A stretch of DNA of 11,948 nt from a virus (Duplodnaviria > Heunggongvirae > Uroviricota > Caudoviricetes), in IMG/VR virus record IMGVR_UViG_2645727867_000006; one strand, written 5' to 3'. The number at the start of each line of letters is the position of its first letter. Position 1 is the first letter of the stretch. Made by a program: the position numbers. Shown here piece after piece: positions 10,201 to 11,948 of this stretch.

Positions 10201-11948
10201 ACCCGGCATGGCATACGACGGCAGAAACCCGGGCGATGAAGGCGACGTCGATCGCATACTGAAAACCATCTGACATAAGGCCGGAGAAATCCGGCTTTTT
10301 TTACGGGTCCTTTCCGGCATATGGACCCGTTACGGGGCGGCGACCTCGCGGTTTTTCGCTATTTATGAGCTTTTTCAGGGTGGTGGTGGTGGTTTTGTTG
10401 TTTGCTCTATCTTTATGAATAAAAAGGGAAATATAAAACCAATACACCAACCTGAAACCTTAACTAAGTGGGGATATTGATGAAATCGCACCTGATGAAC
10501 AAAAAAACTATGGCGCAAAGCTGCCGTGTAAGTGCGACAGCGTTCGACAAGTGGGGAGTGACTCCCGTTGAACGTAAAGGCCGCGAGGCTTTTTACGATG
10601 TTGCCAGCGTGATAGACAATCGGGTAAGCAATGCAATTAACCAGGTTGCAAACGACAAAGGCGAGATTGACGATGATGAACTCTTACGAGTCAGGATCAG
10701 ATTACTGACAGCGCAGGCGGAGGCACAGGAACTTAAAAACCATCGCGAGAGTGGCGACGTAATTGATACGGGGTTTTGTATGTACGCGCTTTCAAAGCTG
10801 GCGAGTCAGATTTCATCAATCATGGACAGCCTCCCGCTTACTATGCAAAGGAGCTTCCCACAGATGACCCCCGCTATGCTGGATGGACTTAAAAAGGAAG
10901 TGGTTAAAGCCTGTAATGCTTGCGCAGGAGTTGCTGACAACCTCCCGCAGATACTGGCTGATTACCTGATGGAAACTACCGGAGACGTACCGGAGAAGTT
11001 ACTACAGAAGAAAGGCGAGTAACAGACGCGCAATTATTGAACAAAAATGAGAAAGGATCTGATAATGGCATTTTCTGGCTAAAATGCCTCGTGTCAGATC
11101 CTTTCTTTTTTTAATATTTTCATTGTTAAACAGTCTGTTACAGAGAAGAAGAACGGATCTGACTTTTGCCGGAAAATTTTCATAAACAGATAAAAACCGC
11201 GAGGTCGCCGCCCCGTAACGGGCCATAATTCCAGGAAGGACCCGACGACACCAGACTATCAGAACGATGGGGGCACAATGACAGAAGCCGAACTACTGCG
11301 ATTAATCCGTCGCGTTGCCGGAATCAGCCAGCAGGCTGACGAACAGGCCACGCAGCCGGACAGCGTGACCGCCGAAAATTATGCGCGTGTGGTTGCTGAG
11401 GTGATGCGCCGTGATGGTATTGAGCTTAACGGCGTGGATATGCGCAACATACGAACCAGAGTCCTTGAGTTGCTGGCATACCGTCGCCGCGTGGAGATGT
11501 ATCGGGAGAAGGAGAAAATCACGTACCACTGGAAGAAGCCGGAGCGGTTACGGCGGTAACTCACTGAGATTAAAGCAAAGCTCAAAATTGCGCTGGCTGA
11601 ATGATCATTATGATTACTTATGTTTACGCAGATGATTAAGGCCTAAACCGTTGATTATTCCACAATCCCCCATTGGGGGAAGCTGGCGGTAACTGGTTGA
11701 ACTTAAAGCAAAGCGCAAAATTGCGCTGGCTGAATAATCATTATGATTACGCAGATGATTAAGGAATGACCGAAGGCGGAAATTCGCCTGTGGTTGATGG
11801 GGGAGTTGCAGATCTGCAACTCGACCATGAAATTACGGAAACTACCCGTAGTTTGGGTAGTAAGAGCAACACCCAGATTTTGGGGCTTACTCGTGATACC
11901 CAAATTTGGGGTATCGGCGGCAACCATAACGACTTTCGTTACGGTTGA

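Follow-up and report, generated by a model that had tools for sequence, protein, structure and literature searches.

Why should a single packaging cassette hold two cos sites that face each other across one small-terminase (TerS) gene? The question is raised by IMG/VR virus record IMGVR_UViG_2645727867_000006, a stretch of 11,948 nucleotides (nt) that is called the window here, at its full length, and that is identical to sequence of Escherichia coli O104:H21 strain 94-3024 (NZ_CP009106.2). Judged by its genes, the element in the window is a phage-inducible chromosomal island (PICI) with a cos-type packaging module, and it belongs to the family of EcCICFT073, the model Gram-negative cos-type PICI, whose gene order it shares. 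Sequence comparisons point to a probable answer: the first site, cos1, would be a private site read by the island's own TerS, and the second, cos2, a copy of the cos of another class of lambdoid phages, read by the terminase of that class.

Both sites are recognizable as complete lambda-type cos sites (cosQ, cosN and cosB) that converge on a Nu1-family terS, the cosB of cos1 being a candidate. On the plus strand, cos1 extends from 10305 to about 10404; cos2 extends from 11243 down to 11044 on the minus strand and reads into the antisense of terS (Table 1). An inverted-repeat search pairs 76-nt arms at 10304-10379 and 11169-11244 that are 82% complementary and that contain an exact core of 31 nt, CCCGTTACGGGGCGGCGACCTCGCGGTTTTT, at 10326-10356 and 11192-11222. 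The 29-nt inverted copy reported in a preliminary description of this DNA is real and lies inside that core, its second coordinate being off by one base. The 12-nt cosN sequence GGGCGGCGACCT occurs exactly twice in the window, once on each strand, and two or more matches were seen in none of 200 shuffles. It is identical to the lambda 12-mer, and the suggestion that cosN has been conserved for the large terminase (TerL) of the helper is supported. Nor is the second copy an assembly artefact, an alternative raised earlier, because two complete assemblies of strain 94-3024 carry identical sequence and positions 8400-11948 are covered to at least 80% in 489 complete E. coli genomes.

The repeat search, the cosN and cosQ positions and the R-site spacing bear out the preliminary view that one of these sites has a full tripartite cosB and the other does not. 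In cos2, cosQ lies 23 nt upstream of cosN and R3 lies 52 nt away; R3, an inverted R2 and R1, together with an IHF-like tract, have the subsites, order and spacing of lambda cos (cosQ, cosN and a cosB of R3-I1-R2-R1, read by gpNu1), and run antisense to terS, as had been noticed from the sequence. Aligned with lambda cos, cos2 is 65% identical over 230 nt. The lambda R-site flanks GTTCTTCTT and TTTCT are kept, whereas the R core is CAGATCC in the island and CGTTTCC in lambda. Also unlike lambda, cos2 has no co-oriented cognate terS and terL: its neighbour is an antisense terS, no terL follows and the island encodes none. No lambda-type R sites are recognizable in cos1, again as first described.

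The R sites of cos2 have a home among phages. IMG/VR was scanned with the R3 pattern of cos2, CAGATCCGTTCTTCTT, and loci with cosN exactly 52 nt upstream were kept (42 loci). About 30 of the 42 are of phage type, with a forward TerS beginning MNVNKKKLADIFGVDVRTITAWQSQG or a close variant, and about 10 are islands in which a window-type terS lies in antisense. The same pairing of CAGATCC R-sites with a MNVNKKKLADIFGVDVRTITAWQSQG-type TerS is found in phage SerU-LTIIb (KU052038). The TerS of this class has a lambda/21-like domain with the helix DVRTITAWQSQ. Because the phage loci pair the CAGATCC sites with a TerS type of their own, these sites are the cosB of a lambdoid phage class with its own, different TerS, and not as a satellite invention. 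In SerU-LTIIb and the roughly 30 IMG/VR contigs, cos is 73% identical to cos2 over 230 nt, with R3, R2 and R1 nearly identical. Compared with 13 distinct phage cos sites, the island cos2 shows 98.8% identity in R1, 86% in R2 and 71% in the spacers after R3; the identity of R3 itself is uninformative because R3 was the search pattern. In these phages cosB is followed by a forward TerS gene and then terL, whereas the cosB of the island abuts the 3' end of a terS of unrelated specificity.

The phage part of a CAGATCC-class probe is present in 223 of 5426 E. coli genomes, always near full length. In host strain 94-3024, the combined island and phage-specific probe matches three chromosomal places, against two for the island part alone; the phage part has no exact word longer than 13 nt in common with the window. 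The host strain appears, from these counts, to hold one CAGATCC-class cosB-terS elsewhere in its chromosome. The phage TerS proteins are mosaics as well (L010 compared with L041 and L066): the CAGATCC-class domain is mostly joined to a 21-like C-terminal half, and in a few cases to a PhiR5_1-like one.

The TerS of the island has a different affinity. Its 180 amino acids (aa) match Pfam family PF07471 (Nu1; E 1.3e-22, aa 67-152), and a profile of the TerS family matches lambda TerS 1-98 (PDB 6HN7_B; E 0.005, aa 6-84), which no single-sequence PDB search reached. The protein thus has, by homology, the N-terminal winged-helix domain of gpNu1 and the Nu1 region for self-association and TerL binding. 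By tblastn it is 44% identical to N15 gp1 (E 9e-41). The N-terminal domain MKSHLMNKKTMAQSCRVSATAFDKWGVTPVERKGREAFYDV is identical to N15 gp1 at 29 of 47 positions (62%) and to Monarch-class TerS at 25 of 42, but at only about 14 of 40 to the lambda-like, 21-like or CAGATCC-class domains. The C-terminal half is identical to PhiR5_1 Nu1 at 58 of 94 positions and is presumed to be the TerL-binding part. The island TerS is accordingly described as a mosaic of an N15/Monarch-class winged-helix domain and a PhiR5_1-class C-terminal half, assignments that follow from these alignments. An Rpp identity for this product (139-154 aa, an R21/T22 helix domain and no TerL-binding tail) was considered and ruled out: the protein is 180 aa long, is about 15% identical to RppA, matches no Rpp chain in PDB searches and has the full Nu1 C-terminal region.

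A TerS with an N15-class recognition helix is thus encoded directly downstream of cos1, and cos1 itself has a candidate simple cosB. Counted in base pairs (bp) from the first cosN base, a G/T-rich element at bp 44-70 bears TTGTTGTTT and occupies the position of N15 R3 (GAGGTTGTTGTT, bp 48-59; R3 as defined in PMC4669245), to which it is a partial match with GTTGTT displaced by 9 bp; other repeats are absent. N15 and the Monarch-group prophages (Feiss et al. 2015, PMC4669245; Murialdo & Feiss 2022, PMC9026076) share with the island TerS the DNA-binding domain class AFDKWGV.PVE..GRE, and the candidate cosB of cos1, like the simple cosB of N15, would have a single G/T-rich element at the R3 place with no I1, R2 or R1. 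In Monarch-class phages the N15-type domain is paired with GGTTGTTGT R-sites (also PMC4669245), and a G/T-rich target for the island TerS would agree with this pairing. Within cos1, the element at 10378-10404 would be that target. N15 and the island may also have in common an inverted accessory copy inside a gene. N15 rR2 lies inside gene 1 (PMC4669245), and a weak rR2-like candidate in the island's terS, CAAACGACAA, differs at a single base from the reverse complement of TTGTTGTTTG; with about 0.06 chance matches expected in the stretch (own estimate), it stands marginally above chance, and it lies within coding sequence. The island differs from N15 in the sequence and register of the element, in a cosN that is lambda-type and not the N15 variant, and in the C-terminal class of TerS.

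The GGT repeats of cos1 are the reverse complement of the CACCACCACC element in Rpp-type cos1. Likewise, the cos1 run GGTGGTGGTGG (10378-10394) is the reverse complement of the CCACCACCACC run in Rpp-type cos1 (CFT073 locus L004, 7604-7621), at the same distance from cosN; that run is the R3-PICI proposed by Murialdo & Feiss (PMC9026076). The relation may be a flipped binding site or a coincidence.

Comparison of sister cassettes, collected from IMG/VR and oriented by the start of the 93-aa open reading frame (ORF) on their right flank, separates the two sites. The cos1 element (GGTGGTGG..TTTTGTTGTTTG; GGTGGT..TTGTTGTTTG) is kept in all 22 cassettes with a window-type terS, and the cosB of cos2 in these same cassettes is of CAGATCC type in 10, PhiR5_1-like in 10 and 21-type in two. 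Another 26 or so relatives share this cos1 and terS but lack cos2, the terS stop being followed by the 93-aa ORF, often after only 11 nt. At an orthologous locus in Citrobacter and Enterobacter, where TerS is 56-58% identical, there is a single cos with GGTAGGTGGTGGTGTTGTTATTT at bp 47-69 despite diverged surroundings. In E. coli JNE151685 (L410 2558-3519), TerS has a 21-type domain, and a complex cosB of 21-like form immediately precedes the gene; the TerS C-terminus is still of island type, and the CAGATCC cosB on the far side is unchanged. This swap and the linkage in the cassettes indicate that the DNA-binding domain and the cosB upstream of the gene are exchanged together, and that the far-side cosB is independent of them.

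In the Citrobacter/Enterobacter-type contigs (L405-L408), the TerS orthologue (P0101) lies in a satellite with a single cos that encodes capsid E, D, an AlpA-domain protein and TerS. Next come a prophage capsid gene in truncated form and FI, FII, Z and U. The satellite is therefore embedded in the late operon of a helper prophage, which resembles the 'helper-embedded satellites' of a preprint (10.1101/2022.07.18.500453).

Every class of cos2 that was met is also present in contigs of phage size, where a TerS of the matching type lies in the same orientation. The cos2 of EcCICFT073 (L004 8100-8300) has three CATGTCCGG/CCGGACATG repeats, and CATGTCCGG repeats also make up the cosB in at least 78 IMG/VR loci of phage type (L176, L177 and others), whose forward TerS begins MATQTEVARHLSLTDRQLRRLQKLPG (MATQTEVARHL...). 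Other rpp islands have a Monarch-class cos2. Seven gene-less cassettes of 536 bp (L138, L150, L156, L172 and others) have a CATGTCCGG-class and a Monarch GGTTGTTGT cosB that face each other between inverted cosN sites; they contain neither rpp nor terS. The recurrence of phage-class cos2 sites across islands suggests that the second site, or both sites in the gene-less islands, is a borrowed helper-phage cos. From these patterns, cos1 is most likely a private site and cos2, most likely, a copied helper-phage cos that is optional and can be exchanged.

The arrangement of the two sites, which had been treated as new, is already published for EcCICFT073 (PMC6092414; PMC6739421, Fig S1A), and the island studied here is a variant of it in which a full TerS replaces Rpp. 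The sites were named cos1 and cos2 by Fillol-Salom et al. (2018 ISME J, PMC6092414; 2019 Mol Cell, PMC6739421), and their inverted orientation is implicit there, since Fig S1A of the latter prints cos2 as the reverse complement. EcCICFT073 is located in CFT073 at L004 1-9000, where the cosN sites at 7558 (+) and 8297 (-) enclose rppA and lie between the two ORFs that also flank the cassette here. The two islands share the family, the slot between the 137-aa and 93-aa ORFs, the inverted cos pair with near-identical cosQ-cosN arms, and a simple cosB upstream of the gene with a repeat-bearing cosB downstream. They differ in the gene itself (a 144-aa Rpp in EcCICFT073; here a 180-aa Nu1-family TerS with a C-terminal half like that of phage TerS), in the cos1 element (CACCACCACC there, GGTGGT..TTGTTG here) and in the class of cos2 (CATGTCCGG there, CAGATCC here).

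In EcCICFT073, the RppA-TerS complex reads the cosB of cos1 (PMC6739421), deletion of cos1 lowers island transfer, and lambda and phi80 can transfer a plasmid that bears either cloned site (PMC6092414). Since the sister element has two working cos sites, the earlier idea that packaging may start in either direction is plausible here by analogy. Fillol-Salom et al. identified no phage cosB in either site (PMC6092414; PMC6739421). Murialdo and Feiss proposed that the PICI cos (cos1) has just one R3, at bp 48-65, in a simple cosB like that of N15, and did not discuss cos2 (PMC9026076). No later paper on cos2 was found in the literature searched, and no identification of cos2 as a phage-class cos in the literature available. 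What appears new is the computational inference that each cos2 reproduces in full the cos of a particular phage class and that such sites are exchanged in the manner of cassettes. A parallel exists in the staphylococcal pac-type islands (SaPIs), where a satellite small terminase works with the helper large terminase to redirect packaging to the island. The island TerS would work alike; SaPI TerS differs in serving headful pac packaging instead of cos, in belonging to an unrelated protein family and in having no second, helper-type site. SaPIbov4 has two putative cos sites (cited in PMC6092414).

The cassette probably works as follows. On induction the island would excise and replicate into concatemers. 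The N15/Monarch-class domain of its TerS would bind the simple cosB of cos1, and the PhiR5_1-class tail would recruit the TerL of a helper, which would nick cosN1 and package rightwards. A CAGATCC-class helper could independently use cos2 with its own unmodified terminase and package leftwards. A run started at one cos would meet the other in the wrong orientation for cosQ-dependent termination. Because the sites are opposed, each would be invisible to the termination of the other's runs, and recombination between them would invert the cassette and cause no deletion. Since cos2 is optional and exchanged between islands, it probably sets or widens the helper range.

Several observations weigh against the reading of cos1 as private and cos2 as borrowed. 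The cos1 element differs from N15 R3, with GTTGTT at bp 63-68 instead of 54-59 and GGT repeats before it, and because the two are not identical its assignment as a cosB draws on position, domain class and linkage. Some linkage between cos1 and terS is to be expected simply because the two are adjacent. The AlphaFold2 model of TerS is poor (pLDDT 59.5, pTM 0.27, from an 18-sequence alignment). The CAGATCC-class prophage of strain 94-3024, whose presence is deduced from the count of three places against two, was absent among the 60 tied 100% matches listed. Finally, deletion of cos2 from EcCICFT073 raised transfer by lambda and phi80 (PMC6092414), which shows that carrying cos2 can be costly, at least when the class of the helper does not match.

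This last result is also what would be expected if cos2 were a functionless passenger, a scrap of phage DNA gained by recombination at the cosQ-cosN core and tolerated or mildly harmful, and the roughly 26 relatives that do without it would fit as well. This reading is nonetheless unlikely. All subsites of cos2 are intact at lambda spacing, from cosQ at 23 nt and R3 at 52 nt through the I1-like site, R2 and R1, and the R sites are more conserved than the spacers. The cloned cos2 of EcCICFT073 supports plasmid transfer (PMC6092414). Across islands, at least five different intact phage-class cosBs occupy the cos2 position, and the gene-less islands carry two; so many intact sites at one position look like repeated selection rather than decay.

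The preliminary description also proposed that the terS segment may invert between the repeats, and natural isomers bear this out. When the predicted junction of the inverted isomer was used as a query, end-to-end matches were found in complete E. coli genomes. In E. coli JNE181771, the cassette measures 879 bp and matches the window cassette at 93.4% identity when the latter is reverse-complemented, against 53% in the forward direction, with the flanks in window orientation and terS intact on the opposite strand. The cassette of JNE151685 is likewise inverted relative to its flanks, and two more isomers are likely. Inversion between the cos copies therefore happens, rarely: the frequency is roughly 4-6 of about 384 complete genomes, and none of 38 gene-bearing IMG/VR cassettes is inverted relative to its flanks. 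The gene-less cassette is found in both orientations (four against three). The 31-nt identity could support rare homologous recombination. The geometry of cosN suggests another route, in which a double cos cut could leave the same 12-nt overhang at both ends, free to re-anneal either way; cutting by terminase at both sites and re-ligation in either direction is thus a possible form of recombinase-independent inversion.

These isomers, the two orientations of the gene-less cassettes and the identical overhangs of a doubly cut fragment might be taken to mean that the inverted pair is an invertible switch whose frequent flipping, by recombination or by cutting and re-ligation, turns terS expression or packaging polarity on and off. 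That is very unlikely, however, given the rarity of gene-bearing inversions, the absence of an invertase gene adjoining the cassette (Pfam scan and RefSeq annotation), an exact identity of just 31 nt, and the fact that both isomers retain two complete cos sites, which leaves little to switch.

Scarcely tenable is the proposal that the island TerS evolved specificity for the GGATCTGA (CAGATCC) R-sites, with copy 2 the satellite site and copy 1 a bare cosN: copy 2 is indeed the only site with three recognizable R elements, and the TerS N-terminus is unlike lambda Nu1, the Pfam match being limited to aa 67-152, but the same R-sites serve as cosB in phages whose TerS domain is different, the island domain is of the N15/Monarch class, the same terS occurs with three other cos2 states, absence of cos2 included, domain and upstream cosB swap together while CAGATCC stays (JNE151685), and the factor of EcCICFT073 reads the cosB of cos1 (PMC6739421).

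Table 1. Features of the packaging cassette and its flanks, in window coordinates.
Feature	Position	Strand	Basis
Conserved 137-aa ORF, left flank of the packaging cassette	9860..10273	+	ORF list; EcCICFT073 homologue at the same position (L004 7083-7496)
Terminator-like hairpin GCCGGA-GAAA-TCCGGC and T-run, ending the capsid-side operon just 5' of cosQ1	10280..10302	+	read from sequence
Left arm of inverted repeat (cos1 cosQ, cosN, cosN-proximal spacer)	10304..10379	+	repeat search; homologue of EcCICFT073 cos1
cosQ1 core GGGTCCT, 23 nt before cosN1	10305..10311	+	sequence and spacing identical to lambda cosQ
cosN1, 12-nt cohesive-end sequence GGGCGGCGACCT	10335..10346	+	shuffle test; identical to lambda
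Candidate simple cosB of cos1, GGG(TGG)4TTTTGTTGTTTG, bp 44-70 from first cosN base; proposed island-TerS site	10378..10404	+	position, conservation
terS, 180-aa Nu1-family small terminase	10480..11022	+	Pfam, profile, tblastn, RefSeq 'terminase small subunit'
Weak rR2-like candidate in terS, CAAACGACAA	10649..10658	-	N15 analogy
Whole cos2 module, optional exchangeable insert between terS stop and orf93	11023..11277	-	cassette comparisons
cos2 R1 TCAGATCCTTTCTCATTTT	11044..11062	-	inverted-repeat pair; 98.8% identity to 13 distinct CAGATCC-class phage cos
cos2 hairpin GGCATTTTCTGGCTAAAATGCC between R2 and R1	11067..11088	.	read from sequence; lambda hairpin at same position
cos2 R2 GTCAGATCCTTTCTTTTT, opposite orientation to R3 and R1	11093..11110	+	inverted-repeat pairs; 86% identity to phage class
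cos2 IHF-like site AATGAAAATATTA at I1 position, 1 mismatch from WATCAANNNNTTR	11112..11124	-	alignment
cos2 R3 GTCAGATCCGTTCTTCTT; CAGATCC core begins 52 nt from first cosN base	11146..11163	-	inverted-repeat pair; spacing same in 42 IMG/VR loci
cosN2	11202..11213	-	shuffle test
cosQ2 core GGGTCCT, 23 nt before cosN2	11237..11243	-	read from sequence, alignment
Conserved 93-aa ORF (orf93), right flank of cassette	11278..11559	+	ORF list; EcCICFT073 homologue L004 8373-8654; orients all surveyed cassettes

The island is about 11 kb in size and is inserted in caiT, the truncated BCCT transporter ORF of which occupies positions 1-1293 of the window. Its genes encode an integrase, an Ash protein, an Icd-like protein, a DUF927 primase and PerC, followed by a lambda gpE-like capsid protein, a gpD-like decoration protein, the 137-aa ORF, the Nu1-family 'terminase small subunit' and the 93-aa ORF. 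As in EcCICFT073, the inverted cos pair thus surrounds a specificity gene between the 137-aa and 93-aa ORFs, downstream of the gpE-like and gpD-like genes. Pfam and PDB searches gave no match for the 137-aa ORF, and single-sequence PDB searches with TerS, the 137-aa ORF and the 93-aa ORF returned only chance matches to repeat proteins. In Citrobacter-type satellites, the ORF at the position of the 137-aa ORF bears a Phage_AlpA domain. The 137-aa ORF was also considered as the island's Rpp and rejected, as it has no likeness to Rpp structures and the same ORF adjoins rppA in CFT073.

The terminator-like hairpin upstream of cosQ1 is kept in EcCICFT073, JNE181771 and JNE151685 and was not flagged by a simple terminator scan, which flagged only the cosN palindromes, regarded as false positives. 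A promoter scan found none for terS, and in positions 9800-11948 no Rfam family scored above its gathering threshold, the weak matches falling on the inverted repeats. Two tandem copies of a unit of roughly 90 nt, GGCGGTAACT..AAAGCAAAGC.CAAAATTGCGCTGGCTGAAT.ATCATTATGATTAC..GCAGATGATTAAGG, lie close to the right-hand end of the island, the unit beginning at the stop codon of the 93-aa ORF (11552-11617 and 11685-11750, 133 nt apart; 11618-11641 and 11741-11764, 123 nt apart). Within a small ORF near the island end, positions 11794-11831 form a perfect-centre palindrome with 19-nt arms, 84% complementary and without a spacer. Islands with a 97-99% identical integrase adjoin tqsA in other strains, as against caiT here, and it therefore seems that the same integrase uses more than one insertion site or that the att sites share a motif.

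PICIs of the cos type carry virulence and other genes between enterobacteria, and what determines the phages that mobilize them is only partly understood. If the proposed mechanism holds, the island replaces the TerS of its helper instead of forming a heterodimer with it, unlike EcCICFT073. If cos2 is borrowed, the helper range may be readable from sequence, with one set of helpers indicated by the class of cos2 and a second set by that of the TerS C-terminus. A broader generalization, offered tentatively, is that PICI packaging modules have a dual specificity, in which a private cos and its factor (TerS or Rpp) are combined with a swappable 'public' cos copied whole from a helper class. Were this so, the class of cos2 would predict the helpers that move an island without any island protein, and the question left open by the Penades group in 2019, why some PICIs carry two different cos sites, would be answered. 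The published conclusion that EcCICFT073 has no recognizable phage cosB would also need revision, because its cos2 matches the phage class with the MATQTEVARHL-type TerS. More generally, the mixing and matching of cosB, DNA-binding domain and TerL-binding domain in these islands would amount to natural specificity swaps for the reading of DNA by small terminases.

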